Below, one piece after another: positions 17,394-47,401 of a stretch of 64,000 bases of DNA. A program made the translations under genes and the position numbers. Origin of the DNA: a virus; the IMG/VR virus record IMGVR_UViG_3300009504_000946, positions 2,558 to 66,557 of that record; one strand, given 5' to 3'. Each line of letters begins with the position of its first letter. Within the stretch, counting starts at the first letter, position 1. The notes under the pieces are model-generated. The model did not search any database, was not told where the DNA came from, and was given only the letters and a program-made list of their open reading frames with translations.

Positions 17394-18457
17394 TTTTTAT
17401 TCTTCAAATCTCTTAATTGCTCAATTAATTTTTTTTCATCTTCCGAATATTCACCTGGAACTTCAAGAGCCAATTCTACTACATAATCTCCAAAAGCATT
17501 TTCATATCCAGGCCCTGGTTTTATTTGTGGAGGCAAGTTTAAAATTGGCATACCACGACCCTTCATTCTATATGATTTTCCATTTTGAGTTCCTGGCTCA
17601 ACCACAAAGGTAAGAAACTTACCCTCTACTGTTGGCACCTCTATCTTTGTTCCAAGAACAAGGTCTTCATAGCTAATTTTATGTCTATGTAACAAAGAAG
17701 CGCCTCTTCTCTCAAATTTGTCATGCTTTAACTCTTCAATTATAAAGACAACATCTCCACGGTCTGCTCCACTTACCCTTGAGTAATGTCCTTTCCCTTC
17801 TGCGGCTATACTTTGACCATGCTCAACCCCTCGTGGGAAGGTTACGACAGCATTTTCATTTTCTATTTCCACCCCACTCCCATGACAAGTTGTGCAAGAT
17901 TCAATAATCACCCTTCCAGTACCAGAACATTTACTACAAGTAGAAGTTCTTTGCATAAAGTGAGCACCAGCTCTCAGTATTTTAGTTTCCTGTCCACTAC
18001 CACCGCAAGTTGTACACGTATGAAATGCTGTTCCATTTTTGGCTCCATTTCCAGTGCAACTTGAACAGATTTTCTGAACAGCATATGAAACCTCTTTGTC
18101 ACATCCATTATAACACTCCTCAAGAGTTAGAGATATTTTTACGTGAGCGTTTTTTCCTTTTGCAGCCTGTCTGCCAAATTCATTCATAAAATGCTCATAG
18201 TGACTTCCAAATCCACCATAACCTCCAGAAGCAGCCTTATCCCAATCGTGGCCATATTTATTATACAGCTTTCTTTTTTCTGGGTCACTCAACACATCAT
18301 TAGCCTCGTTGATTTCCTTAAACTTTTCTTCAGCCTCTTTATTGTCTGGATTTTTATCAGGATGATATTTCATAGCCATCTTACGATACGCCTTCTTGAT
18401 TTCATCATCAGAAGCCCCACTTTGCAGTCCTAATATTTCGTAATAATCTCTTTTCAT
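17375..18457 (-). CDS. dnaJ: Chaperone DnaJ
   Basis: J domain with HPD, four CxxCxGxG repeats, C-terminal domain. Confidence 0.95.
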
Positions 18458-21141
18458 TATAATCTTGGGTCAAGTTCTTTTTCATTTCTCTCTTCAAGGA
18501 CCATTTCTCCATAAGCCTGGATAAAATGCTCATTTTCCTTGTTAATTAAATTATATGGAATTTCAAGGATTCTCTTTCCTATTTCCCACTCCTTTACAGA
18601 AACCTCAAGTTTTCTCTTAATTCTCTTTCTTTGAATTAATTTTGTGAACTTGGATTCAATTTGATAATCTGGGCCATAAACAATGGTTAAGTATCTTGGG
18701 TTACGAACTTTAATTGAGGGGGCCACGCCTTTAACATAAACAGTTAGGGGCTTAAGCATAATTCCCTCCATCTCATCAATCAATGTGGTCTTGTCATAAA
18801 AAGTCTTAAGCAATTCTATGTCCTCCTGATTGTTAACGTCAACAACAAGATAGTTATCTGAATTAATTCCCTTGTAGATGTCCTCGTTTGACTCATTGAA
18901 AAACAGTTTCTCTGTTCCATCCTCGAACACCTCTTTCAAAATAGAAAATGGTTTAAAGTAAACGTCTCCATCTGCACCATATAGCTCAATTTGACGTGAG
19001 TATATTTTTGTAAGGGCTTCAAGTTCATCAATACCTGGAAATTCTCTCACATAATCTTTTATACATCTAAACGTTCTCTCATTATTAGAGCCAATCAAAT
19101 CGGATAAGTCTTTTTTTGAAGTCTTATTGGAGATTTTTTCAAAATCACAATCCTTATATGGACCATTGTAAACATTTTCTAAAGCTTTATCAAACCCTGT
19201 TGTCTTCAAAAACTCTATTTCACTTGAGATAGCCTTGTCAACAGTTACGAAACTACTTTCAATTAACCCTCGCCCAATTGCTGACCAAGGAAGAAGTTCT
19301 GCATCTAAAATTATTAGCTCAGTATTCTTACTAAAAGCTTCCTTGATATATGGCAAGTCATATAGTGGCTTGTAAGCCTCTGTTAAGTCAACCTGTGTTT
19401 CCTTGATGATGTGGCCACCTCTTGATGTTGTATAATTCTTCTCTGGGTTCTTAAAAAGATATATATTGGCTCTTGAACCCATATACTTAGGTTGAGCAAT
19501 AATTTTTTCAACACCCTTCCTTCTAAAATACTCTATACCTTGTTCGAGAGACTCAAGCTGACTATCAGCAAGTATAATATTCTTATCCTCATCCTTAGCT
19601 AATAATTTATCAGCTGGGCACACAGTTCCAGAAATAAAATTTACCTTATTTTCTGCAGCCGTAAGTATTCTATCCCTTTCACGTCCCTCAAGTGTGTCAA
19701 TAGATATTTTTGCTATTGGAGCCGCAAAAAACTCTTCAAGATTCTTCTTAACAATTTTTTCATTATCGTGAGCAGAAATCTTATTCACAAAATGACGACC
19801 ACTGCTATTGATATTTATAGAGGTTAAGTGACCACCGCTAACAGCTCCAGAGTCAATGTTTATTTTATTGTACAGCTTGGACATTCCCTTGCTCGACACA
19901 TGACCGAATAAGTGAATTGGCAGAGACCTGCTTGCTTGGTCTCTAAAAAACTTAAAGAATTTTGACTTAGCAGCCATATAATCTTGAGGATTGCCAAATT
20001 CTATTTCTTTTGGATATACGATTGTTCTCTGATTTCTTTCTGATACTGAACCGAGTTTTCCAAGATACTTTTGGTCACAAGGCGCATGAGTAACAATAAA
20101 GTCTTCATGCTTTAAAAAAGGCTTCATAGATTCACAAACTACAAAGAATTTCTCTTTTAGCTCCTCATTAGATTCAAACAACTTGATGCTATCGAAATAA
20201 GTATCAATTACATCTTGTGGCGGAAGGTCCTTCGTGGGTATATCGCCCTTGAGGTATCTGTATACGAAATTTTCATGATTACCCTTTACTACATAAAATA
20301 AGTCAAGGTTATTATAGACAAGCTCAATAACACCACCCACATCATAACCTTTATCAACAAGGTCACCAACAAGGATAATTCTCTTATTTTCTTCTACGTG
20401 TGATATTTTCCCATCCTTAATCTCAAATCCATTTCTATCAAGAAGAGCCAAAAACTCTTCATAACAACCATGGATGTCACCGATGGTGGTATAATCAAAT
20501 TCTGAACTTAACAAGCATTCTTGATATTGCTCGTGGTTAATAACATTTATCTCATAGTCCTCAACATCATGAGACTTAACTCTGTAAATGTCCTGGAAGG
20601 TTTTCTTACTAATCTCACGCATTACAGTATCTCTCATATACTCAAGCTGGCGAGATGTAACAGCCTTACTTTCTTCATCACCAATAAATCGGTAATAAGG
20701 CTCCCTACCCTTGTAATCAAACATAATTACAACAAGATTGTAATTATTATCATCTGCAATATTTTTAATGCTGTCACGAAATTCTTTGCTAAGACCAGTT
20801 GTGTCAACAATAACAAAATCAGTGTTGATTGGATATGAAGTCAGGGCCCTAACTCTTGCATCAAGAAGGTTAAAGGCTTGCTTGCTGGCATACATCATCT
20901 TTGGGTCTTTTTTAGATAGATTCATGTCACCAAGAAGTTCTCTTCTAATTTCATCAGAACTAACATGAGAAACAGATGCATTCCCAAGTGCATTAATAGA
21001 TGGCAATATTCTGTTCTCAGCAAAATATGTCTTTCCACAGCCACTTGGACCAACCATTAAAATAATAGTATGCAACCTTAAGTCAATTGTAACAATATCT
21101 TTCCCAGTTAAGGCTTCTTTATTTAAAGTTTGATTCTGCAT
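18457..21141 (-). CDS. pnkp: Polynucleotide kinase-phosphatase-ligase (Pnkp)
   Basis: GPSGCGKT kinase, GDIHGC/GDLVDKG/GNHE phosphoesterase, [24 protein letters not shown] ligase, LDPRL C-terminus; start at MQNQ. Confidence 0.92.
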
Positions 21142-21151
21142 ATAATTCTTA

Positions 21152-21177
21152 TACGTTAATTTCAAAAAAATGTTTAA
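21152..21177 (-). promoter_or_regulatory. ECF-sigma-type promoter (variant)
   Basis: TTAAAC-N16-CGTATAA. Confidence 0.6.
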
Positions 21178-33750: not shown

Positions 33751-34314
33751 TTACCCAAAAGTTTGAATCTTAGCATCCACTTCTTTTAGTTCGCCCCATG
33801 TACCGAGATATGTCACAGCTCGAACTTTTCTATTGTCAATCCAAACATATTCTTGTCCTTCTTTAATTCTTGGCTTATTCATAACCAGACCGTGGTATTG
33901 GAAACCATTTTCATGAAGCCACTTTTCGGTGACATATCTATCTTTTTCTTCTCTGGCAGTAAAAAAAGTAATTACATTTCCTTCATAATACCACTTGTTC
34001 AGCATCTCCTTTGCTCCAGGCAAAGCTTTTGCTTTAGCATAAAGATGGCTGTCCTCATTCTTGATGTCATCACAAACAGTTCCATCAATGTCAATCAAAA
34101 ACACTTTGTTGCCAGCTCTTTTCGGATTGTGATGAGAAATTCTTTCTGCCAAATCCTTTATATTCCATTTAATCCTTAATATTTCAGGGCTTAACTCAAT
34201 AAAGTCAGAGTCCTTTAGTCTCTCTCTTTCATCAACCAATCTTTTTTTCCAATATTCAATTGCCTCTTTTAGGCCTTTTAAATCCTTTGGCATTTCATCA
34301 TCATCAATCATCAT
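33751..34314 (-). CDS. HAD-superfamily phosphatase
   Basis: LIDIDGTVC, FFTAR, NKPR, WIDN. Confidence 0.8.
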   Translation of the reverse strand: MMIDDDEMPKDLKGLKEAIEYWKKRLVDERERLKDSDFIELSPEILRIKWNIKDLAERISHHNPKRAGNKVFLIDIDGTVCDDIKNEDSHLYAKAKALPGAKEMLNKWYYEGNVITFFTAREEKDRYVTEKWLHENGFQYHGLVMNKPRIKEGQEYVWIDNRKVRAVTYLGTWGELKEVDAKIQTFG

Positions 34315-34730
34315 AACTCTCTTTTATCAATTTCATGTTTAATCCTACTTGCCTCCTCATAATCCTCTATTTCAATCGCCTCATCGAGCTTTGAAACCAG
34401 CGAAGTGTCAGACATGCTCTCATATTTACTTTTTCTCTTAGCATTAACAAGTGTAGTTGGGTCTATATAATGTGCCCAACCTTCTTCAAATTTATGAATT
34501 GGCAAGTCAATCAACCTACCCTTCTGAAGTATATATGTAAATGAATCCGTAGCTTCAAAGTAGGCGCACCCATTTGCTATTCCTATGAATATAAGCTTTT
34601 CTCCAATATAACTTGAATCATAACTCATTCCACCCATAAACATACTTTGACTTATAATAACAGACGGTTCAATTCTTGTAACTATATCTCCTGGACTAAA
34701 TTCGTATATAGATTTTGGTTCTTGTTTCAT
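34311..34730 (-). CDS. Hypothetical protein with C-terminal UVR motif
   Basis: LDEAIEIEDYEEASRIK. Confidence 0.6.
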   Translation of the reverse strand: MKQEPKSIYEFSPGDIVTRIEPSVIISQSMFMGGMSYDSSYIGEKLIFIGIANGCAYFEATDSFTYILQKGRLIDLPIHKFEEGWAHYIDPTTLVNAKRKSKYESMSDTSLVSKLDEAIEIEDYEEASRIKHEIDKREL

Positions 34731-35194
34731 CCTCGATAATTTATATTAAAAAATAAACAATTTTCCCTTGGAACTCTATACATCTGGTCTTTCCCATTTC
34801 TATCGTGAGTATCTATTGTCAAATCTTCAATATAATCATCCAAAAATATTTGTTCGGAATCACAACAGACTGCCCACTCAGTTTCGACACATATTATTAT
34901 GTAATAAAATCCTTGCTTGATGTGAAGTCTTTTTTTCCTACCCAAAAAGCTAACAGTATTAAACTTATAGGTATTTTTATGTGTAAATGGATAATTTATT
35001 TTAACTTCTAATTCAAAGTAATATGTAACCCCGTCTTTTTCAGTTATTATGTCATGCTCATAATTTTCATGAGAACTCAAAACTTTATGACCCCTACTAA
35101 CGATAAAATCTATAAACTTTTGTTTAGCATAACCATCATTGTTGTCATAAGAATTTTGATTAAACTCTCTTGCTTCATATTTAAACTCCGACAT
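34727..35194 (-). CDS. Putative PD-(D/E)xK nuclease-fold protein
   Basis: HDIITEKDGVTYYFELEVK. Confidence 0.55.
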   Translation of the reverse strand: MSEFKYEAREFNQNSYDNNDGYAKQKFIDFIVSRGHKVLSSHENYEHDIITEKDGVTYYFELEVKINYPFTHKNTYKFNTVSFLGRKKRLHIKQGFYYIIICVETEWAVCCDSEQIFLDDYIEDLTIDTHDRNGKDQMYRVPRENCLFFNINYRG

Positions 35195-35340
35195 TATTTG
35201 GCAATGTAAGTTATTTTTACATATTTCTCTTTATTAATTGAGAAAATTCTATTCACTATCATTAATTCTAAGTTTAGAACAAAGATATAAATTTAAAAGC
35301 AAGTAACCAAGTAATAGAATTAAATATTTCAAAGTACATA

Positions 35341-35368
35341 AAAAAAGTACCCTACTTTAGAGGATACA
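35341..35368 (-). terminator. Probable terminator closing the tRNA-Gln array
   Basis: Imperfect hairpin GTATCCT..AGGGTAC followed by T6. Confidence 0.45.
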
Positions 35369-35373
35369 TTTTG

Positions 35374-35446
35374 TTGCCCACCCAGGGCTCGAACCTGGAC
35401 TCTTCTGTGTCAAAAACAGACGTGTTGCCAATTACACCAGCGGGCA
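35374..35446 (-). tRNA. tRNA-Gln(TTG)
   Basis: Cloverleaf; anticodon arm TCTGT-TTTTGAC-ACAGA; U1-A72; no encoded CCA. Confidence 0.92.
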
Positions 35447-35453
35447 ATATTTG

Positions 35454-35537
35454 TTGTGCAGGTAGGATTCGAACCTACAAAGGATTTCTCCATACTTGAT
35501 TCAAAGTCAAGACGCTTGCCAGTTTGCATACTGCACA
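35454..35537 (-). tRNA. Atypical tRNA-Gln(TTG) with long variable arm
   Basis: CTTGA-CTTTGAA-TCAAG; V arm TATGGAGAAATCCTTT; T arm GTAGG-TTCGAAT-CCTAC. Confidence 0.8.
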
Positions 35538-35590
35538 ATATTTGTTTCCCATATCTATTGCTTTACCTCACTTATGGGGAGTGAATTTTG

Positions 35591-35663
35591 TTGCCCACCC
35601 AGGGCTCGAACCTGGACTCTTCTGTGTCAAAAACAGACGTGTTGCCAATTACACCAGCGGACA
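35591..35663 (-). tRNA. tRNA-Gln(TTG)
   Basis: Cloverleaf; near-identical to 35374-35446. Confidence 0.92.
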
Positions 35664-35716
35664 ATATTTATTTCCCATATCTATTGCTTTACTTCACTTA
35701 TGGGGAGTGAATTTTG

Positions 35717-35789
35717 TTGCCCACCCAGGGCTCGAACCTGGACTCTTCTGTGTCAAAAACAGACGTGTTGCCAATTACACCAGCGGACA
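35717..35789 (-). tRNA. tRNA-Gln(TTG)
   Basis: Identical to 35591-35663. Confidence 0.92.
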
Positions 35790-35796
35790 ATATATC

Positions 35797-36051
35797 TTAA
35801 TTCATTTTTTCTTTCCAAACTTCTTTTATCTCCTCATCTGAAACTCCAACCTCAGACATTCTACTATGCATCATCATTAATTCAACACATAGACAAACAT
35901 CGAGTCCCAACTCAAACCTCTCCACGGCTTTGTCAAAATATTTATCAAATATTATGGGACCACCCCTTTCTAAAAGAGTTAGTGTATATCCCTCTTCACA
36001 TTCTGAACAAAGTACTTTTTTACCTTTTATTATTATTTCTTTAATTTCCAT
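35797..36051 (-). CDS. Hypothetical protein between the attenuator and the tRNA-Gln array
   Basis: 84-aa ATG ORF with CSEC motif. Confidence 0.55.
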   Translation of the reverse strand: MEIKEIIIKGKKVLCSECEEGYTLTLLERGGPIIFDKYFDKAVERFELGLDVCLCVELMMMHSRMSEVGVSDEEIKEVWKEKMN

Positions 36052-36069
36052 TTTCTAAATTTTTGACAT

Positions 36070-36099
36070 AAAAAAAGCCTGAACTAATCAGTCCAGGCT
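36070..36099 (-). terminator. Attenuator terminator (Gln leader)
   Basis: AGCCTGGACT-GATT-AGTTCAGGCT followed by T run. Confidence 0.85.
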
Positions 36100-36128
36100 C
36101 TCAAATATTTTGTTTTTTAACAAATAGT

Positions 36129-36206
36129 TCAGGCAACACCAGGACCGTCCTCTCTCGAAGATTGCTGCTGTTGTTGCTGAGCTGATATGTTAATTACGTT
36201 TTTCAT
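36129..36206 (-). CDS. Poly-Gln attenuator leader peptide, 25 aa
   Basis: MKNVINISAQQQQQQSSREDGPGVA*; contains antiterminator GTCCTGGT complementary to the terminator 5' arm. Confidence 0.8.
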   Translation of the reverse strand: MKNVINISAQQQQQQSSREDGPGVA

Positions 36207-36291
36207 TTCTCTAATAAATAGTTTTATTTTTAATAAACTTGTTTTTGCAACAATAAACCTTGTTAGTTTATTGTGTACTTTTTACTTGTTG

Positions 36292-36373
36292 TGACCGAAG
36301 CGAGACTCGAACTCGCACGCCCTGCGGCAACGGCTTCTTAGACCGCCTTGGCTACCAATTACAACACTCGGCC
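36292..36373 (-). tRNA. tRNA-Leu(AAG)
   Basis: GCGGT-CTAAGAA-GCCGT; long V arm; A73. Confidence 0.85.
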
Positions 36374-36385
36374 ATTTTTATCTTA

Positions 36386-36421
36386 TACGCAAATTTAGTT
36401 CTTTTGTTTCAAATAATCAAA
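36386..36421 (-). promoter_or_regulatory. Overlapping ECF-type and Bacteroidota housekeeping promoters
   Basis: TGAAAC-N16-CGTA (36386-36411) and TTTG-N20-TAAATTTG (36390-36421). Confidence 0.7.
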
Positions 36422-36656
36422 CTTTTTTTGCAAAAACTTTCTTTATTTTTTCTGATATTAATTCAATAGGGTTTATCTTAAGCAATACAAAAGAAAGTAA
36501 AAAGAATAGGGATGCCAATACATAAAATATATATGTTGTAATCCAATAGTCCCCTGACAATTTCATCACGAGAGCAAATAGTTCTGCATACCCGAATGGG
36601 TTCAGAAATGTTGCTATCATTAAGCAAAGAATCCCTATGTTCTTTCTGTTTCTCAT
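36417..36656 (-). CDS. Small membrane protein
   Basis: Two hydrophobic helices; start probably MRNRKN. Confidence 0.55.
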   Translation of the reverse strand: MRNRKNIGILCLMIATFLNPFGYAELFALVMKLSGDYWITTYIFYVLASLFFLLSFVLLKINPIELISEKIKKVFAKKV

Positions 36657-36763
36657 AATCCCCTGTACTGTCTGATTCCATTTAATCAATTTTTGTTTAA
36701 CAATAGAATATTGCATATTGCGATATGCAATATTCCTCTTTTTTATAAATAGAAAGATAAACT

Positions 36764-37498
36764 TTATCTTTCAATATTTTTACATAATTCATTCCACCTT
36801 AAAATGGACATCCTCACATAATCTCTCCCATCTAAGCCATAAGTTCCTACGCCATATCCATCATTTACTTCTATGAGCATTGTTTCACATTTGTCTGTAA
36901 CTCCAAAGTCAATTGCATATGCAATCGGCTGTGAAGTATAATTTTTTATCGTGTCATTTATAAAGTTAAAGTCTGGAATTACCTCATGATTCCCGCTATA
37001 CTTTCTACAGTCAATCACTTTTCCTTCTGCAACAAAAACTCTATATTCAGACACAAAATTAACAACAGATGAAGTCATTATATTAAACTCATCTCCTTGC
37101 ACAGTCAAAGTAGATATATAATCCAACTCATCCTTATCTGGAATGACAAGCCCAGTAAACAACTTCAACGTTGTCGGCTTAACAAATAAAGGAAAATTTC
37201 CATTATCCTTAAAGTGTCTTACCGTACCTATTTCTATATCCCTCATTGTATACTTATACAATTCTTTTGGAATGTCAATAGGCTCTGGAACAATTACTCC
37301 AAGACTACTTAATGCATGTCTTATTGGAGTAACTCCTCCGAATACAATTGTATTCTTTGTAATATCTAAGCTGTCAATTTCATCGTAATCAAATTTTTCA
37401 GTCTTTATTCTCAAGTGCTCACAACCCAGAAAAGCTACATAAGTTGCCTCAGTTGCAAATTCACCTTTAAATGTTTGAAGATATGCTTTTTCTATCAT
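36764..37498 (-). CDS. ATP-grasp domain protein (DUF4343/R2K-like)
   Basis: FVKP..KLFTG, SEYRVFV, AIDFG, IEVND. Confidence 0.8.
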   Translation of the reverse strand: MIEKAYLQTFKGEFATEATYVAFLGCEHLRIKTEKFDYDEIDSLDITKNTIVFGGVTPIRHALSSLGVIVPEPIDIPKELYKYTMRDIEIGTVRHFKDNGNFPLFVKPTTLKLFTGLVIPDKDELDYISTLTVQGDEFNIMTSSVVNFVSEYRVFVAEGKVIDCRKYSGNHEVIPDFNFINDTIKNYTSQPIAYAIDFGVTDKCETMLIEVNDGYGVGTYGLDGRDYVRMSILRWNELCKNIER

Positions 37499-37544
37499 GC
37501 TAAATTATAAGCATTTTTTTGCATAAATTCAAACACCTAAAAAA

Positions 37545-38306
37545 TTACATATCTTCGAGTGCCATAATTAACTTTTGCATGTCAGCATCGTAAAATCCAG
37601 CACAAGAAGTGCTTCCACACTCAACTATCTTCCATCCATTATCAGTAAGACAAACATCAATTACAAATGTATCAGCAAGTTGATATATGTCCACCATATC
37701 CTGAGCAAAATCTAAAGCATCTTGGTCAACTATGTTATCATAAACCAAGAAACTACCACGCCTATAAGTACTCTGTGTTACTATTTTTCCTTTTACAACC
37801 CAACATCTAACTTCTTGCGTAATTCTCTTTGGAACCGCTACTTGAATCTTAGAATCAAACCTTAGCGTTGTATCCTCTTGATGTGAAAGCATTCTATCTT
37901 TAAATTTATCCCATTCAGTTTTTTCATATACCTTGCCAGTAAAAGATTTTGAATCAAGGCATGGTCTTATAAAATGCTGGTCGCACTTCCAATCAAAGTC
38001 ATCTCCAAAATCAATAACCCTTGAGTCATAATTTAAAAGATTATCCTTATAATATTTTGAATACACGTTGTAATCGTGATTTTCAGTTATTAATGCACCT
38101 GGAGTCCAAGAATATTTTTTTGACAATCTCGCCAACTTAAGAGAACCAAAAACAAATACATCTTTCCTATCTGTCTTAAATTCGACTTCTTCTACAAAAG
38201 GGAAAACTGTAACCAATTCATGACTTATGTCAAACTTATTAAGACAGTTCATTAACTTAGCATGACCTTCTTCTCTAAATAAATTTTCTTGTACAATATA
38301 ATGCAT
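37545..38306 (-). CDS. ATP-grasp domain protein (DUF4343/R2K-like)
   Basis: FIRP..DSKSFTG, EVRCWVV, VIDVC, KIVE; start MHYIVQ (the track extension overlaps a tRNA). Confidence 0.8.
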   Translation of the reverse strand: MHYIVQENLFREEGHAKLMNCLNKFDISHELVTVFPFVEEVEFKTDRKDVFVFGSLKLARLSKKYSWTPGALITENHDYNVYSKYYKDNLLNYDSRVIDFGDDFDWKCDQHFIRPCLDSKSFTGKVYEKTEWDKFKDRMLSHQEDTTLRFDSKIQVAVPKRITQEVRCWVVKGKIVTQSTYRRGSFLVYDNIVDQDALDFAQDMVDIYQLADTFVIDVCLTDNGWKIVECGSTSCAGFYDADMQKLIMALEDM

Positions 38307-38322
38307 AATCTTTAATTTTTTG

Positions 38323-38405
38323 TAGCCCAGGCGAGAATCGAACTCGCACTCCACAAGGGAACAGAATTTTAAGTCCTGCGTGTCTACCAGTTTCACCACT
38401 GGGCC
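38323..38405 (-). tRNA. tRNA-Leu(TAA), long V arm
   Basis: CAGGA-CTTAAAA-TTCTG. Confidence 0.9.
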
Positions 38406-38479
38406 ATTTTTTAATATGAGTGTTCATTATCCCAATCTATTCACGTAATGTGAACACTCCAAAATAATGAACAATCTTG

Positions 38480-38560
38480 TACCGATGGAGAGAGTCGAAC
38501 TCTCACGCCTTTAGGCACTGGGTTTTGAATCCAGCGTGTCTACCATTCCACCACATCGGC
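38480..38560 (-). tRNA. tRNA-Leu(CAA), long V arm
   Basis: CTGGA-TTCAAAA-CCCAG. Confidence 0.9.
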
Positions 38561-38574
38561 ATATGCTGAGGCTT

Positions 38575-39126
38575 TCACTCAGCTGCTTTATATTTTCTAA
38601 AAGTCAAACTTACTCTCGGACCACAATCTCTATCATGCTTTGGAATCCTGTGTAAGTGTGTGTCTTGGAATCCTGGAGGCATGTAAAACAATGAGCCATT
38701 TTCTAACTTCCTTTTATTCTCATCTGGGACCATACCCTTTTCCCCTTTTTCTTTCCACCATATTTCTCTCTCTGCCCCAAATGACACAACTGCAATTCCA
38801 TCATTGTGGTCAATTGAGTGAGAATCATCAGCGTGCCATCCTAATCCATTTCTTGAGCTAACATACATGTTTAAGAAGCAAATATCCAAGCTTGTTCCTA
38901 ACTTCTCATTCACCTTATCCATTATAGACTTAACTATAGGAATCATTGGAGTTGACTTATAGGTAGGAGCTCCGCTGTGGTCTAAGTAAGAATATTCAAT
39001 GTCAGAGTTTGCCATAAAGCACTCTCTTCTCATCTTTGTCTCATCAACCCAACTTACTTCCTTCACTAATGTGTCAATAAAGTCTTCGTCAATTAACTTG
39101 TCTATGTAAACTAAATTTTTCATCAT
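38575..39126 (-). CDS. AlkB-like 2OG-Fe(II) dioxygenase
   Basis: LNMY, GWHADD, VSFGAER, HRIPK, RVSLTFR. Confidence 0.9.
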   Translation of the reverse strand: MMKNLVYIDKLIDEDFIDTLVKEVSWVDETKMRRECFMANSDIEYSYLDHSGAPTYKSTPMIPIVKSIMDKVNEKLGTSLDICFLNMYVSSRNGLGWHADDSHSIDHNDGIAVVSFGAEREIWWKEKGEKGMVPDENKRKLENGSLFYMPPGFQDTHLHRIPKHDRDCGPRVSLTFRKYKAAE

Positions 39127-39137
39127 TTTTATTTTTG

Positions 39138-39211
39138 TGACCCCTATGGAATTCGAATCCATACTATACGCTGTTTAAGAACGTTGCCTCTGCCTATTGG
39201 GCTAAGGGGCC
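39138..39211 (-). tRNA. tRNA with Leu(TAA) anticodon and short V loop
   Basis: ACGTT-CTTAAAC-AGCGT; 5-nt variable loop ATAGT. Confidence 0.85.
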
Positions 39212-39219
39212 AAATCTTG

Positions 39220-39317
39220 TGTGTTGAGCAGGATTCGAACCTACAATAAGGAGATACTGCGCAATATCTTTATCCTCACGACTAAATCGCATGTCTAACC
39301 TCTTTCATCATCAACAC
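39220..39317 (-). ncRNA. Atypical tRNA-like RNA (Leu-type D loop, shrunken anticodon loop, very long V arm)
   Basis: 7-bp acceptor GTGTTGA/TCAACAC, T arm GTAGG-TTCGAAT-CCTGC, arm GCGA-TTTAG-TCGT. Confidence 0.65.
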
Positions 39318-39318
39318 A

Positions 39319-39395
39319 TGGTACACCTGGAGGGAGTCGAACCCCCAACCTCACGAGTCGTAATCGTGTGCTCTATCCAGTTGAGCTACAGGTGC
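39319..39395 (-). tRNA. tRNA-Arg(ACG), CCA encoded
   Basis: CACGA-TTACGAC-TCGTG. Confidence 0.93.
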
Positions 39396-39405
39396 ATATT
39401 TCCGA

Positions 39406-39729
39406 TTACTCGGAAACTTTTATAAATTCACCAGACTTAATTGCCTTTCCAATCCATCTGTTAAGCTCAGAACCTCTCATCTCCGCTGAGAAAGTTGTTG
39501 TCCCAAGGTCTGCAGACAATGTTGTAACTACATCTGGTTCCTTAACTTCTGCACCAACTTCTAAAGTTGATACATGATGTGTAACTTCAACGTCAATAGT
39601 CGAAATAGGAAATTGATAAACTCCACCTTCCAACTTTACAGTGTAATATAAATTACCACTCACATAGTGACTAAGCTTAGCCATCTCTTTGCTTTTAAAA
39701 AGCTCTTTTTTTACTTCTAACTCGTTCAT
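39406..39729 (-). CDS. Hypothetical protein
   Basis: ORF between tRNAs. Confidence 0.6.
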   Translation of the reverse strand: MNELEVKKELFKSKEMAKLSHYVSGNLYYTVKLEGGVYQFPISTIDVEVTHHVSTLEVGAEVKEPDVVTTLSADLGTTTFSAEMRGSELNRWIGKAIKSGEFIKVSE

Positions 39730-39745
39730 TTCTTATAAAGTTATG

Positions 39746-39818
39746 TAGGACTTACAGGGCTTGAACCTGCGACCTCTTGCATGTCATACAAGCGCTCTAC
39801 CAACTGAGCTAAAGTCCT
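39746..39818 (-). tRNA. tRNA-Val(GAC)
   Basis: CTTGT-ATGACAT-GCAAG; 5' end overlaps the leuS stop. Confidence 0.9.
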
Positions 39819-41098
39819 GTATTAAAATTTGGAGCAAAACACCTTACTATTTCTGTAAGTGCAGCAGCTGTGCTCCCTGTCAACTGCTTATTCTTATTTT
39901 TATTGTAGAATTCCATCAAAGTGCTTATTACCTTATTAAACTTGAAGGATTCTACATATCCATCAATAGTATATTGCAAATCAATTATATCTTTAGCGGT
40001 TACACCCTCACTTACACCCTCACTTACACCCTCAATCCATCTATTCCATTTACCTAAAGCCCTTCTTATTCCACTAATCTTTGAGTCATCCCAATCTCCG
40101 CCTTCGAAGTAGTGTCCAATGAACATCAAGTACATTCTCAACTCATCTGGGTCGTAGTCATCTGGGTTTACAACATTCCCAATTGACTTTGACATCTTGA
40201 CCCCATCTTTGGTAATCATTCCCTGGTGAATCAATTTCTTGAATGGTTCCTCACATGTAACAATTCCTTGGTCATACAAGAACATATTAATAAATCTTGC
40301 ATAAATCAAGTGCATGCATGCATGTTCATTTCCACCAACATACAAGTCCACTTGTTTGTATTCATCCTTAGGCAAAAACTCACTATCACTATCTGTCAAA
40401 TATCTCAAGTAGTAAAATGAGCTATCAACAAATGTATCCAAAGTATCAGTTTCTCCATCTACAGGAATTGGACATCCCCAACTCCTCTGTCTTGATACAC
40501 ACCAATCATTCAAATTCTCAAGCCAGTGTCTCTGTTGCTTCTTTGTCTTCTCTGGGTAGTCAATCCAATCCAAGTTTTTAATCAACCTGTCTTTATAATC
40601 TGTAATTTTAAAGAACCACTGATTCAACTCTCTTACCTCAACTTGCGACTTACATCTATCACACTTCTCCTCTTTTACCTGCTCATTTGCCAATACAGTT
40701 TCACAACTTGGGCAGTAATTTACTGGAGCAACTTTCTTATAAGCCAATCCAGCATCTTTCAACTTCAAGAACAACCACTGTGTCCATTTTTGATAGCTTG
40801 GGTCAGATGTAACCAATTTCTCTTCAAATTGAGTATTCATATTCTGCATCTGCCACCTAAATCTCTCAATGTTCTTATAGGTTATTCTCCTTGGGTCTCC
40901 ACCTTCTTTCTTGGCCTGGTTTTCTGCAGGCAATCCGAATGAGTCATATCCAAAAGGTTGGAACACGCTTATTCCTTTAAAATTTTTCCATCTGCAGTAA
41001 GAATCAATTACCGCATAATTGTAAGCATGTCCAACATGCAAACCATCACCTGAAGGATATGGAAACATTGTCAAGCAGTAAAAATCTTCCTCTTTCAT
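39809..41098 (-). CDS. leuS: Minimal leucyl-tRNA synthetase (no CP1 editing domain, no C-terminal domain), 429 aa
   Basis: MFPYPSGDGLHVGH, DSFGLPAEN, DWCVSRQRSWG, DTLDTFVDSS, GGNEHACMHLIYARF, KMSKSIGN; start MKEEDF. Confidence 0.92.
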   Translation of the reverse strand: MKEEDFYCLTMFPYPSGDGLHVGHAYNYAVIDSYCRWKNFKGISVFQPFGYDSFGLPAENQAKKEGGDPRRITYKNIERFRWQMQNMNTQFEEKLVTSDPSYQKWTQWLFLKLKDAGLAYKKVAPVNYCPSCETVLANEQVKEEKCDRCKSQVEVRELNQWFFKITDYKDRLIKNLDWIDYPEKTKKQQRHWLENLNDWCVSRQRSWGCPIPVDGETDTLDTFVDSSFYYLRYLTDSDSEFLPKDEYKQVDLYVGGNEHACMHLIYARFINMFLYDQGIVTCEEPFKKLIHQGMITKDGVKMSKSIGNVVNPDDYDPDELRMYLMFIGHYFEGGDWDDSKISGIRRALGKWNRWIEGVSEGVSEGVTAKDIIDLQYTIDGYVESFKFNKVISTLMEFYNKNKNKQLTGSTAAALTEIVRCFAPNFNTGL

Positions 41099-41108
41099 AA
41101 TCTTTTTT

Positions 41109-41251
41109 TTGCGCTTGCGCCAGTGAGCAAAGCGAGTTGTAGGACAGGAGGGACTCGAACCCCCGACATCTTGCATGTAAAACAAGCGCTCTACCAGCTG
41201 AGCTACTATCCTATTTTTATGCGCTTGCGCCAGTGAGCGAAGCGAGTTGTA
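41109..41251. repeat. ~32-bp direct repeat forming the 3' trailers of two tRNAs
   Basis: TGCGCTTGCGCCAGTGAGCRAAGCGAGTTGTA at ~41110 and ~41220. Confidence 0.8.
41140..41212 (-). tRNA. tRNA-Val(TAC)
   Basis: CTTGT-TTTACAT-GCAAG. Confidence 0.9.
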
Positions 41252-41323
41252 CCCTCTGTCAGATTCGAACTGACACTGTATGGCTTCTAAGGCCATCGCC
41301 TCTACCAATTGGGCTAAGAGGGC
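41250..41323 (-). tRNA. tRNA with Leu(TAG) anticodon and short V loop
   Basis: ATGGC-CTTAGAA-GCCAT; 5-nt variable loop ACAGT. Confidence 0.85.
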
Positions 41324-41376
41324 ATTTCTATTGTTGGCCAAATGTGGTATTTAACTTCTACATTTGGCCACTTTTG

Positions 41377-41451
41377 TACTCCCTGTTGGACTCGAACCAA
41401 CGACCCTTGCCTTGTAAGGGCAATGCTCTGAACCAACTGAGCTAAGGAAGC
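41377..41451 (-). tRNA. tRNA-Val(TAC)
   Basis: TTGCC-CTTACAA-GGCAA. Confidence 0.93.
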
Positions 41452-41478
41452 ATTCTAAATTTATAATTTCGTCTTCAG

Positions 41479-41564
41479 CTTGCCAAGCAGGACTTGAACC
41501 TGCACGCCCTATTACGGGCAGCCCTTCTTACAGAGCCCATGTCTACCAATTCCATCATTGGCTC
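41479..41564 (-). tRNA. Degenerate Leu-type tRNA (anticodon ambiguous, TAA or AAG)
   Basis: Leu-type D loop and V arm, intact T arm; only 5-bp acceptor; irregular loop TGTAAGAA. Confidence 0.5.
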
Positions 41565-41620
41565 GCCTTAGACCAGAACTTCATAGAGTTTGCAACCTCT
41601 TATTCATTCTGACAATTGTG

Positions 41621-41693
41621 TGGTGATGGAGGGAATTGAACCCCCGACACATGGATTTTCAGTCCATTGCTCTACCAACTGAGCTACATCACC
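41621..41693 (-). tRNA. tRNA-Phe(GAA)
   Basis: ATGGA-CTGAAAA-TCCAT. Confidence 0.93.
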
Positions 41694-41753
41694 ATAAATT
41701 CCGAAAGACTGGTAAGACCTGCAAGCTCGGAAAAACACCTGCAGGTGTCTATG

Positions 41754-41830
41754 TGGTACGGACGAGAGTCGAACTCGTGACCTCTGGGGTTTCAAGCCAG
41801 CGCTCTACCAAAAAACTGAGCTACCATACC
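41754..41830 (-). tRNA. tRNA-Phe(GAA), variant
   Basis: Loop TTGAAAC; C31:C39 mismatch; U-rich expanded D loop. Confidence 0.8.
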
Positions 41831-41832
41831 AT

Positions 41833-41972
41833 AAAATTTAGGGGAAAGTTTGAGAGAGTGTAAACCCCTGAAGGGGCTCGACAGGACTTGAACCTGTAAC
41901 AGTTTGTGTTTAAGACAAATGCGCTACCAATTGCGCAACGAAGTAACTCTTACTCATCACCACCTAAATTTT
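41833..41972 (-). ncRNA. Y-RNA-like RNA carrying a tRNA (TAA anticodon) D/anticodon/T module
   Basis: Outer stem AAATTTAGG/CCTAAATTT, internal loop TGGTGA/AACTTTCC, inner stem, TACTTCG, then tRNA arms with a broken acceptor. Confidence 0.55.
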
Positions 41973-41976
41973 TTTG

Positions 41977-42112
41977 TGGAGGGGGCTGGACTCGAACCAG
42001 CGACACGGTGCTTTCAATGCAAACGAAGTATCTCACATTCTCACCACTAACAAAAGGGAAAACGAAGTAAGGTTTTTTTTCTAACCTGCTCTACCAACTG
42101 AGCTACCCCTCC
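41977..42112 (-). ncRNA. Phe-like tRNA with a ~60-nt Y-RNA-like insertion in the anticodon arm
   Basis: Perfect acceptor GGAGGGG/CCCCTCC, D and T arms; insert carries the TTTTCC, TGGTGA and TACTTCG motifs. Confidence 0.6.
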
Positions 42113-42176
42113 AAAAATTTATTCTTAATATGTCAAATTTTCCTTTCGGAATTCCCTGGACGCTTCCAGTGGAAAC

Positions 42177-42206
42177 AAAAAAAGCCCGAACAGTAGTTCG
42201 GGCTTT
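42177..42206 (-). terminator. Attenuator terminator (Leu/Val/Phe leader)
   Basis: AAAGCCCGAAC-TACT-GTTCGGGCTTT plus T run. Confidence 0.88.
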
Positions 42207-42232
42207 CAAATATCTTTTATATGATTATAACA

Positions 42233-42334
42233 TCAACTTAAAGACATATTACGTCCGAACTCTTGTCTACTAAAGACAAATAGTAATTGCACTTGCAATA
42301 AGAGTTGACGTGATATGTTGTTAATGTTTTTCAT
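42233..42334 (-). CDS. Multi-codon attenuator leader peptide, 33 aa
   Basis: MKNINNISRQLLLQVQLLFVFSRQEFGRNMSLS*; AGTTCGG is complementary to the terminator 5' arm CCGAACT. Confidence 0.8.
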   Translation of the reverse strand: MKNINNISRQLLLQVQLLFVFSRQEFGRNMSLS

Positions 42335-42380
42335 TGTTATCTTTAAATATACAGAAAATTTATTTTTCCATTTTTAATTA

Positions 42381-42415
42381 TACGCAAATTTATAAATTAT
42401 GTTTCAATAATCCAA
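42381..42415 (-). promoter_or_regulatory. Overlapping ECF-type and Bacteroidota housekeeping promoters
   Basis: TGAAAC-N16-CGTA (42381-42406) and TTG-N20-TAAATTTG. Confidence 0.7.
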
Positions 42416-42495
42416 GGCTTTTTTTAATTATTTTTAATAATAATTTTTAAATAACTGATAATCAAATATTTATAATTAAAAATAATTTGAAAAAT

Positions 42496-42526
42496 AAAAA
42501 ACCTGAAGACTTTCTCCAGGTTTTTT
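42496..42526 (-). terminator. Intrinsic terminator
   Basis: AAAAAACCTGGAGA-loop-TCTTCAGGTTTTTT. Confidence 0.7.
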
Positions 42527-42530
42527 ATTT

Positions 42531-43292
42531 TTAGAACCACCACTTTCCATAGTGCTTGTGTCGATATTTGAACTCATGCTGGTCATCGCACCAATCATAA
42601 ATCCAACAACCCCAATCATCAGTAATGTCATCATACTTAGCAAAGGTAGCTCTCATATTTTTGCGAAGCGCATTCTTATTATAAGCTCTATCCCTTCTGT
42701 TTAAGCATTGTCTCCACCACTTTGAAGAACTGTGTCTTTCCCAGTACTTTCCTCTAACATCATAGAAGGTTGTCTCAAGTTGAGCATTAATTTCCGCTTC
42801 TTCTCTCAACAATTCTTCATCAATGACCTTGTAATGAGTCTTGTAGCTCTTTACAATCTTTCTCACAAGAAAGTGAGATGGGATGTTAACGGCATATACT
42901 GTGTATGATGCTCCCCCCCAGCGACTCTGCTTTTGATAAGAATAAAAAAACTTCTGAGCCCACGCACTAAGATTATCATATCGCTTTTGGTCAATTTCTC
43001 TTAGCCCTGGGTTAACATCAACCATTTTTTTACAAGAACGGTCCCATTCTTTGAAATTCTTATCCTTACACCAAACAGTTGTACCAAAGTTATCAAGAAT
43101 TTGCTGAAACTTATCAGCATCTTCTCTCCTTGCCACATCGTCTCTAAGGACCCAGTAGGAATCATACCCATGGTGGATTGGTTTTTCGAGAGGCTTGTAT
43201 CCGAGTTTCCTCTGTGCCTCCCAGTTAGCATCATGCTCTCTCATCTTACTGAGAAATGCCTTGTGCTTTTCTGCTTTCGCATTCCTTTTCAT
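42531..43292 (-). CDS. Basic hypothetical protein
   Basis: 253-aa K/R/W-rich ORF (WVLRDDVAR). Confidence 0.7.
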   Translation of the reverse strand: MKRNAKAEKHKAFLSKMREHDANWEAQRKLGYKPLEKPIHHGYDSYWVLRDDVARREDADKFQQILDNFGTTVWCKDKNFKEWDRSCKKMVDVNPGLREIDQKRYDNLSAWAQKFFYSYQKQSRWGGASYTVYAVNIPSHFLVRKIVKSYKTHYKVIDEELLREEAEINAQLETTFYDVRGKYWERHSSSKWWRQCLNRRDRAYNKNALRKNMRATFAKYDDITDDWGCWIYDWCDDQHEFKYRHKHYGKWWF

Positions 43293-47351: not shown

Positions 47352-47365
47352 CGTTTTTTTATTTA

Positions 47366-47401
47366 TACGCAAATCTAAGATAAATGTTTCAAACTTGCAA
47401 A
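47366..47401 (-). promoter_or_regulatory. Overlapping ECF-type and Bacteroidota housekeeping promoters
   Basis: TGAAAC-N16-CGTA (47366-47391) and TTTG-N20-TAGATTTG. Confidence 0.7.

Follow-up and report, generated by a model that had tools for sequence, protein, structure and literature searches.

The locus

This study concerns a putative attenuator, and the tRNA genes behind it, in a 64,000-nucleotide (nt) stretch of viral DNA (IMG/VR record IMGVR_UViG_3300009504_000946, positions 2,558 to 66,557), here called the window, which makes up nearly all of this linear 66.5-kb record. On the minus strand, a tRNA-Leu(AAG) gene is followed by a leader open reading frame (ORF) of 25 codons with six consecutive glutamine codons, an intrinsic terminator, an 84-residue ORF (ORF84) and four genes for tRNA-Gln(UUG). 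An earlier note, made from the sequence alone, had proposed that the short ORF is a poly-Gln leader controlling the terminator. The parts of this focal unit are listed below in the order of transcription, with (-) for the minus strand and with segments numbered as in classical attenuators.

36383-36397 (-): promoter-like 15-mer TAAATTTGCGTATAA, 10 nt upstream of tRNA-Leu(AAG)
36291-36373 (-): tRNA-Leu(AAG), ahead of the leader (ARAGORN; Rfam tRNA, 40.5 bits)
36129-36206 (-): leader ORF MKNVINISAQQQQQQSSREDGPGVA, 25 codons from an ATG start, plus TGA (36131-36129)
36162-36179 (-): candidate control codons CAG CAA CAA CAG CAG CAA, six Gln, segment 1
36130-36179 (-): leader hairpin 1:2, Gln codons paired with GUCCUGGUGUUGCCUG in the minimum-energy fold
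36137-36148 (-): segment 2a, ACGGTCCTGGTG, pairing with the terminator 5' arm AGCCTGGACTGA (candidate antiterminator 2:3)
36125-36134 (-): segment 2b, GCCTGAACTA, spanning the TGA, a perfect complement of TAGTTCAGGC
36070-36102 (-): intrinsic terminator, segments 3:4, with a 13-pair stem, a 4-nt loop and T7
36102-36090, 36089-36086, 36085-36073 and 36076-36070 (-): terminator 5' arm, loop, 3' arm and T-run, respectively
35797-36051 (-): ORF84, between the terminator and the tRNA-Gln genes
35716-35789 (-): tRNA-Gln(UUG) copy 1 (ARAGORN, Rfam)
35590-35663 (-): tRNA-Gln(UUG) copy 2 (ARAGORN, Rfam), the tandem 126-nt duplicate of copy 1
35453-35537 (-): 85-nt tRNA with a UUG anticodon and a long variable arm (ARAGORN; Rfam, 52.2 bits)
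35373-35446 (-): tRNA-Gln(UUG) copy 3 (ARAGORN, Rfam)
35347-35367 (-): terminator-like hairpin and T-run closing the unit

The Gln run lies on the minus strand at 36162-36179, where the earlier note had placed it, and is the sole run of at least four CAR codons on either strand of the window. With Gln codons making up 2.7% of the 16,690 codons in long window ORFs, six in succession have a chance of 3.8e-10 per position under the codon usage of the window. The sequence upstream of the leader is A-rich and lacks a Shine-Dalgarno motif, as for other genes of the window. The terminator begins after a spacer of 26 nt from the leader stop codon, has an energy of -17.5 kcal/mol and has its stem as the minimum-energy structure. 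ARAGORN and Rfam both recovered the four tRNA-Gln genes that the note had seen downstream (52-60 bits in Rfam). Two of them form a tandem duplication at 35590-35789 (-), consisting of two identical copies with a 126-nt period of tRNA-Gln plus spacer.

The promoter-like 15-mer occurs in three exact copies (36383-36397, 42378-42392 and 47363-47377, the last with TAGATTTG...), takes the form TA[AG]ATTTGCGTATAA and is preceded 11-12 nt upstream by TTGAAACA in all three. It is probably a phage promoter class, and the copy upstream of tRNA-Leu(AAG) is, in this putative role, the probable start of the focal transcription unit.

Alternative pairings in the leader RNA

The 156-nt focal RNA has a fold z of -4.6, and in a constrained-fold series the free RNA folds into the leader hairpin plus the terminator. 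The 1:2 leader hairpin, absent from the earlier note's account, is also the consensus structure of three sequences, namely the window and its two distinct close relatives described below (L061 and L072). It would act as an anti-antiterminator, completing the classical four-segment layout, and could possibly be a pause hairpin as well.

Two pairings that would compete with the terminator had been proposed in the note, and they fared differently. The first joins GTCCTGGT (36145-36138), which begins 16 nt past the last Gln codon, to GCCTGGAC in the 5' arm of the terminator, where 7 of 8 positions pair, six by Watson-Crick pairs and one by G-U, with one mismatch; it was confirmed and is identical in L061 and L072. 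The duplex between segment 2a and segment 3 (2a:3) reaches -13.8 kcal/mol vs. -9.4 kcal/mol with the arms of other units, its own arm ranking 3 of 39. The second joins the complement across the stop codon, segment 2b, to the terminator 3' arm (nine bases in the arm, one in the loop). It is exact in the window, where the duplex reaches -15.8 kcal/mol (z -4.5) and where an exact complement of at least 9 nt arose in 0.2% of 2000 shuffles (p=0.002), but the complement is kept only as 8 base pairs (bp) in L061 and 6 bp in L072, compared with 10 bp in the window. Because it shrinks in this way, the conserved antiterminator must be the 2a:3 pairing. The 2b:3'-arm pairing was thus rejected as the sole antiterminator, both for its decay from 10 to 8 to 6 bp and because the partner of the upstream segments in other genomes is the 5' arm and not the 3' arm. 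Segment 2 as a whole spans -17 to +7 relative to the stop codon.

When a ribosome was masked on Gln codon 10, 12 or 15 with the RNA extending to the terminator loop, ACGGUCCUGG paired with CCUGGACUG of the 5' arm; when it was masked at the stop codon, the terminator formed.

Conservation in close relatives

ORF84 has four homologues with 58-70% identity. A scan with the alignment of these homologues gave no relative among viral contigs; relatives were present in the metagenome contigs L061 and L062, which are identical to each other in the focal region (70%), and in one contig of the genome collection, L072 (58%). In L061 and L072 the order is that of the window, with tRNA-Leu(AAG), leader, terminator, ORF84 homologue and four tRNA-Gln(UUG) genes including the long one, and the promoter-like 15-mer is also kept in L061. 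Both leaders end in ...NNINVQQQQQQQSSREDGPGIA directly before the stop codon and have seven Gln each.

The distribution of change within the unit is uneven. Identical in the window, L061 and L072 are 24 nt TCTTCGAGAGAGGACGGTCCTGGT, the GCCTGA that follows and both terminator arms, as well as segment 2a and its pairing with the 5' arm, while divergence is seen in the spacer, in the loop of the terminator and in the stretch that precedes the Gln run. The identity extends to synonymous sites, which points to selection on the RNA.

ORF84 itself is a real conserved small protein gene. The homology check that the earlier note had suggested for it yielded these relatives but no family or fold match: against Pfam there was only a sub-threshold match to DUF7630 (18 bits vs. 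a cut-off of 27), PHROGs gave no match and the ESM Atlas no usable match, and Foldseek with its AlphaFold2 (AF2) model gave 0 matches in PDB and BFVD at E<=0.001. That model has four strands and two helices and a predicted local distance difference test score (pLDDT) of 91.5. ORF84 is confined to the focal lineage; in other Gln units the first tRNA mostly lies 4-6 nt past the terminator, and 60 nt past it in one (L067). Because of its position, ORF84 would be co-regulated with the tRNA-Gln genes. The suggestion in the earlier note that it is an effector found no support.

A paralogous unit with a mixed leader

The window holds a second unit, whose leader lists many amino acids.

42233-42334 (-): paralogous leader ORF MKNINNISRQLLLQVQLLFVFSRQEFGRNMSLS, followed by its stop codon
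42180-42207 (-): paralogue terminator, then a tRNA array (Phe, Val, Leu, Arg, others)

The start of this leader, MKN.xNIS, resembles that of the Gln leader (two exact pattern matches and one with two mismatches; 0.09 expected). Codons 9-21 are CGT CAA CTC TTA TTG CAA GTG CAA TTA CTA TTT GTC TTT, and all 13 are read by nine downstream anticodon species (ACG, UUG, AAG, UAA, CAA, UAC, UAG, GAA and GAC), each of which is represented among them. The codons read by these nine species account for 22.1% of usage, giving 0.221^13 = 3e-9 for such a run. The 2:3 pairing here is GAGUUCGGA:CCCGAACUA, at -11.3 kcal/mol, and the Rfam Leu_leader model matches 42178-42254 with 35.5 bits, below its cut-off of 50.

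Directly past this second attenuator are three tRNA-like genes that default ARAGORN missed and that score 45-58 bits in Rfam. One of them has an insertion of ~45-60 nt, and the motif TACTTCGTT recurs in or near them.

41977-42112, 41878-41941 and 41754-41830 (-): tRNA-like genes past the second attenuator (Rfam)

A wider family before phage tRNA clusters

The start pattern shared by the two window leaders matched 35 viral contigs, of which three are true relatives (G001-G003); the other 32 matches, which lack a terminator or tRNA, are attributed to chance. The three are jumbo-phage records of 229, 436 and 476 kb, and the leader N-terminus is common to the focal unit, the paralogue starting at 42334 and leaders in all three. 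From their 16 tRNA regions we listed the terminators before tRNAs together with short ORFs ending just upstream. A short ORF and a terminator precede tRNA cluster after tRNA cluster, and the leader residues match the tRNAs behind, as in these examples.

Leader MRTTTQYQQQQQINPTD, then stop: downstream tRNAs Gln x3
Leader ...NPQPQDQDP...: downstream tRNAs Gln, Asp, Pro
Leader ...YYYEAE...: downstream tRNAs Glu, Tyr
Leader ...HKHFSKSNKWF...: downstream tRNAs Phe, His, Phe, Trp, Lys x4
Leader ...IIKKSISIKIKK...: downstream tRNAs Lys x4, Ile x3, Met
Leader ...WSSRRRSSSR...: downstream tRNAs Ser, Arg, Trp
Leader ...HINTKTNKHNNT...: downstream tRNAs Asn, His, Thr

Like units occur in two GenBank huge phages of 634-642 kb (LR745206.1 and LR756502.1). 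A Gln leader of the form M(T/R)TT.Q.QQQQ(Q)IN.TD, ending at its stop codon and followed by a terminator and 2-4 tRNA-Gln genes, is found in G002, in both GenBank phages and in six further viral contigs. Used as a second search pattern, this Gln leader matched 7 viral contigs, namely G002 and these six, all of which have the leader, the terminator and tRNA-Gln. Overall, a poly-Gln short ORF with a terminator is paired with tRNA-Gln genes at 12 distinct loci. The family also reaches a cultured virus, the Cellulophaga phage phi4:1, in which a single tRNA array has three leader and terminator units.

Leader MKIQRLHLQELEQPIISGGTGV, then stop, with terminator: then Pro, Glu, Gln, His, Leu, Leu, Arg tRNAs
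Leader MKTNYCTYNNSNWSFSY... with terminator: then Tyr, Ser, Asn, Trp, Phe tRNAs
gp075 (...TKTGITVIDKTKGARA...) with terminator: then Ala, Lys, Ile, Gly, Met, Asp, Thr, Val, Arg, Met tRNAs

In the phi4:1 record (KC821632.1) the three terminators lie at about 87159-87186, 88132-88162 and 89888-89919. The annotated TTG start of gp075 is doubtful. We found no leader and terminator unit in Microbacterium phage Leaf (3 tRNAs), a T5-like Salmonella phage (14) or T4 (8), three control phages that do not delimit the distribution of such units.

The correspondence between leaders and tRNAs was quantified on curated units. Starting from 25 terminator-like sites before tRNAs, we retained 18 units, and the second leader of the window, added by hand, made 19. 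Three sites were dropped as weak, spurious hairpins (window-locus 1752, L042 1095 and L057 5573), as were L055 5214, where the hairpin lies inside a tRNA gene, and three other sites; alternative-frame ORFs were also dropped. With the match score defined as the mean fraction of leader residues that have a downstream tRNA for that amino acid, the 19 units score 0.378 vs. 0.163 +/- 0.024 when leaders and clusters are re-paired (0 of 100,000 permutations), and 0.344 vs. 0.141 at the level of codon and anticodon. Taking one representative of each of 16 leader types, the score is 0.419 vs. 0.181 +/- 0.029 (0 of 200,000 permutations). In an uncurated set of 39 automatic units, which includes two doubtful picks, the score is 0.345 for the leader frame vs. 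0.155 and 0.123 for the remaining two, and the leader frame comes first in 36 of 39 (Wilcoxon p ~1e-7).

The RNA pairings are likewise specific to their own units. Between the 3' part of a leader and the 5' arm of its own terminator the pairing averages -13.4 kcal/mol, vs. -8.8 kcal/mol with the arms of other units (0 of 20,000 permutations), and compared with shuffles the antiterminator pairing has a mean z of -2.96, with no more than 15 of 300 shuffles as good in 15 of the 19 units. The terminator starts 17-31 nt past the stop codon in the curated units. For 38 of the 64 tRNA block starts a strong terminator lies at most 450 nt upstream, in many cases at a distance of just 2-30 nt; such a gap leaves no room for a promoter, and those tRNAs would therefore be expressed only by read-through.

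Three further features of these genomes were noted. In phi4:1, TTGTTGTATGTTTGCCAA lies directly before two leaders (L060 5540-5566 and 6470-6500), in the first with 0 nt before the ATG, and these two leaders may be read from leaderless or nearly leaderless transcripts. The long variable arm of the UUG tRNA in the focal unit is a class II feature, normally limited in bacteria to Leu, Ser and Tyr tRNAs; this tRNA has counterparts in L061 and L072, the Gln clusters of L051, L058 and L059 contain 82-85-nt forms, and in the clusters of G001-G003 ARAGORN assigns tRNAs of 85-91 nt to Lys, Ile, Asn, Glu, Asp, Met and Thr. Additionally, G003, the 229-kb record, encodes a tRNA with a CUA anticodon (L057 1823-1897), of amber-suppressor type and labelled Pyl by ARAGORN, which hints at TAG recoding in this phage.

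Proposed mechanism and competing explanations

The focal unit has an ORF, control codons, a terminator, a candidate antiterminator, a 1:2 anti-antiterminator fold and a link between the codons and the genes behind. It is very probably a ribosome-mediated (leader-peptide) attenuator that would tie transcription of the tRNA-Gln genes and ORF84 to the supply of charged tRNA-Gln. The retention of the unit in relatives, the paralogue in the window, the family-wide match of codons and tRNAs and the terminator-specific pairing all support this proposal of the earlier note. From the elements observed at the locus, their conservation, the codon/tRNA match and the pairings found in silico, we infer that the leader is translated, that ribosomes stall on it and that read-through is conditional. 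The best explanation of the family as a whole is that the focal unit belongs to a modular system of phage tRNA arrays, in which the leader codons would list the tRNAs behind, and that what is sensed would be how well the codons read by the tRNAs past the terminator are decoded.

In the proposed sequence of events, transcription would begin upstream of tRNA-Leu(AAG) and enter the 25-codon leader. If Gln-tRNA(Gln) is plentiful, the ribosome would reach the TGA and cover segment 2, allowing the 3:4 terminator to form; if no ribosome has loaded, segment 2 would be paired with the Gln-codon segment 1 and the same terminator would result. In both cases transcription would end at 36070-36076. With slow decoding of CAA and CAG, the ribosome would stall on codons 10-15, occupying segment 1 and leaving segment 2 (36148-36125) free. 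Segment 2 would pair with the 5' arm of the terminator while the 3' arm is still to be transcribed, and its tail could also pair with the 3' arm. RNA polymerase would then read into ORF84 and the four tRNA-Gln genes.

Several observations weigh against this account. The focal 2a:3 pairing is no better than that of shuffled sequences (33 of 300 as good, z -1.36), and as soon as the RNA includes the 3' arm, the minimum-energy fold is the terminator even under a ribosome mask on the Gln codons, so antitermination could only act kinetically, as it does in classical attenuators. Covariation was absent in the three close relatives (0 of 31 pairs vary on both sides), because these sequences are nearly identical in their structured parts. 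Longer in-frame ORFs of 59 and 66 codons share the leader stop in L061 and L072, and the true start codon of the leader is therefore uncertain. Between the terminator and the first tRNA-Gln gene are 284 nt, holding ORF84, where an internal promoter could lie, and 26 of the 64 tRNA block starts have no strong terminator within 450 nt upstream. Taken alone, the match of the focal leader does not discriminate (0.25 for its own cluster vs. 0.20 for others, rank 5 of 16). Many of the comparative units (G001, G002, LR745206.1, LR756502.1 and the pattern-matched contigs) are mutually homologous, so that the counts overstate their independence, although the 16 leader types differ in content despite this homology.

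Some of these points could be accommodated by other explanations. The shuffle result and the 284-nt interval would suit an ordinary terminator of the tRNA-Leu(AAG) transcript, with the ORF arising by chance and ORF84 and the tRNA-Gln genes having their own promoter. We regard this as very improbable, given a six-Gln run that is unique in the window and has the minute chance expectation stated above, an ORF, Gln run and pairing segments that were kept where the neighbouring sequence diverged, the 12 distinct poly-Gln loci before tRNA-Gln, and the many units with just 2-30 nt between the end of the terminator and the first tRNA. Instead, the short ORFs might be genes for functional micro-peptides, such as ones that regulate translation factors or aminoacyl-tRNA synthetases, the terminator being unrelated to their translation. 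Conserved N-termini (MKN.xNIS, MTT, MRT) and tails (SSREDGPG[VI]A, IN.TD) within families would fit this, yet the tails fall on the segments that pair in the RNA and are kept at synonymous sites too (24 identical nt), the middle of the leader is entirely different from unit to unit and tracks the tRNA content, and these peptides of 16-37 residues have no family match, none having been sought beyond the ORF listing. This explanation, too, seems to us highly doubtful.

A translation-coupled terminator that reports general translation capacity, with the Gln codons incidental or merely a slow stretch, would fit the architecture, which responds to any stall upstream of segment 2. It also accounts for leader residues that have no downstream tRNA, the match ranging from 0.25 to 0.67 and never reaching 1.0. 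Leader composition nevertheless tracks tRNA identity over 16 types, down to the level of codon and anticodon, and the match is restricted to the leader reading frame, which a general sensor would not need; we consider such a sensor unlikely. An RNA-only sensor, such as a T-box or other riboswitch that binds tRNA or a metabolite and for which the ORF is irrelevant, would share the layout of a terminator and antiterminator before translation-related genes. It is the least probable explanation of those weighed here: no T-box or other riboswitch matched within 34500-43000 (Rfam, E<=1), the signal is frame-specific and consists of runs of several codons vs. one specifier, and the leader is only ~150 nt long.

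Genomic context and host

The window has a G+C content of ~35%, and its long ORFs are all on the minus strand. Its tRNA region spans 35373-42112 with few protein genes interspersed; ARAGORN found 14 tRNA genes there and Rfam four further tRNA matches. Embedded in the array are genes for a pair of paralogous ATP-grasp proteins of the R2K clade (Pfam R2K_2/R2K_3, E 1e-20 to 8e-38) as well as for an AlkB-like 2OG-Fe(II) oxygenase (PHROG "alkylated DNA repair", E 1e-54), and these genes may be co-regulated with the tRNAs of the second attenuator. Elsewhere there is a HAD/PNKP-like phosphatase, along with two large proteins that have polynucleotide-kinase-like and phosphoesterase parts, in what looks like an RNA-repair theme adjoining the tRNA region.

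36764-37498, 37545-38324 and 38575-39162 (-): the two R2K ATP-grasp genes and the AlkB-like gene, taken together, downstream of the second attenuator
33751-34314, 18457-21165 and 60516-63071 (-): the HAD/PNKP-like phosphatase and the two large proteins, taken together

A Shine-Dalgarno-like motif at -20 to -5 was present in 1 of 56 long window ORFs vs. 13.8% of random 16-mers, and the regions upstream of these ORFs are A-rich (~60% A at positions -13 to -10). Scarce Shine-Dalgarno motifs and A-rich upstream regions are typical of Bacteroidota and their phages. The lack of these motifs, together with the Cellulophaga phage parallel, suggests a Bacteroidota-like host for the window phage. The contig of the relative L072 is labelled as a Deltaproteobacteria metagenome-assembled genome, at odds with such a host, but this label may be a binning artefact. 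The Bacteroidota promoter consensus TTTG-N17-21-TANNTTTG was tried as a host marker and rejected, being without enrichment (5 matches vs. 4.2 expected).

A possible role for gated tRNA genes

The purpose of phage tRNA genes has been debated for decades, with ideas including codon compensation and the replacement of a degraded host pool. The leaders suggest that these phages would switch on the tRNAs that are running short. Escape from anticodon nucleases is among the reasons proposed for phage tRNAs (eLife 2023, PMC10264068).

We tentatively extend this to a possible, though not the likeliest, picture of "tRNA on demand", which would be a modular circuit in phages with large tRNA repertoires. 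Each sub-cluster, along with embedded ATP-grasp, AlkB-like and other genes, would be locked behind a terminator, and the key would be a leader peptide whose codons list the anticodons behind. Decoding capacity would thus be measured per anticodon and only the tRNAs withdrawn by the host replaced, whether cut by anticodon nucleases or lost in host shut-off, which would make the leaders sensors of tRNA-directed immunity. The phages concerned would probably be those of Bacteroidota, from the 145-kb Cellulophaga phages to 640-kb huge phages. If this is true, the gated clusters reveal the purpose of their tRNAs, which are made when decoding of those codons fails, and the open question on phage tRNAs becomes directly testable. 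The leaders would also be compact natural sensors of the supply of individual tRNAs, and Cellulophaga baltica with phage phi4:1 offers a cultured system in which to test this.

Comparison with known systems

The focal unit is a member of no curated Rfam family, and Rfam at E<=1 gave no leader family over 36066-36215. Full-text literature searches returned no account of leader attenuation of tRNA genes or of mixed-codon leaders. The terms attenuat-, terminator and leader have 0 occurrences in the main text of the huge-phage paper (PMC7162821), and these terms and promoter have 0 in the main text of a survey of viral tRNA gene organisation (PMC6409571). The units appear to be a widespread and undescribed regulatory design of phage tRNA arrays.

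Several known systems share parts of this design. In mycobacteria, polycysteine leaderless short ORFs are described as cysteine-responsive attenuators (bioRxiv 10.1101/834739); they resemble the units here in that short ORFs rich in one codon sense the supply of that amino acid, and differ in organism, in having operon mRNAs as targets with no tRNA genes downstream, and apparently in expression platform. The terminator/antiterminator choice that reports tRNA status before translation-related genes is also a property of T-box riboswitches. A T-box senses uncharged tRNA by binding it directly, independently of translation, whereas the signal here would be a translated codon run. In pheST attenuation (the pheM leader), the phenylalanyl-tRNA synthetase of E. 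coli is set by the supply of charged cognate tRNA. There, as proposed here, part of the translation apparatus is under leader-peptide attenuation that follows the charged tRNA supply; the target there is a host chromosomal synthetase gene and here it would be phage tRNA genes.

The closest parallel in form is with the attenuators of amino-acid operons (trp, his, leu, thr, pheA, ilv), which likewise have a short ORF with a run of the sensed codon, a terminator before the regulated genes and 1:2, 2:3 and 3:4 alternatives, ribosome position deciding the fold. To our knowledge, glutamine is not among the classical sensed amino acids of leader-peptide attenuators. The phage-encoded unit differs from the operons in that it would regulate tRNAs and a small ORF and not biosynthetic enzymes, so that the loop would close on the tRNA itself, and its sister units use mixed leaders of up to nine codon species. 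We know of no earlier case of leader-peptide attenuation with tRNA-gene targets, glutamine sensing or multi-amino-acid "barcode" leaders. Overall, what is new here is tRNA genes as the target, the phage setting, the glutamine signal and the mixed "barcode" leaders, while the mechanism itself is classical.

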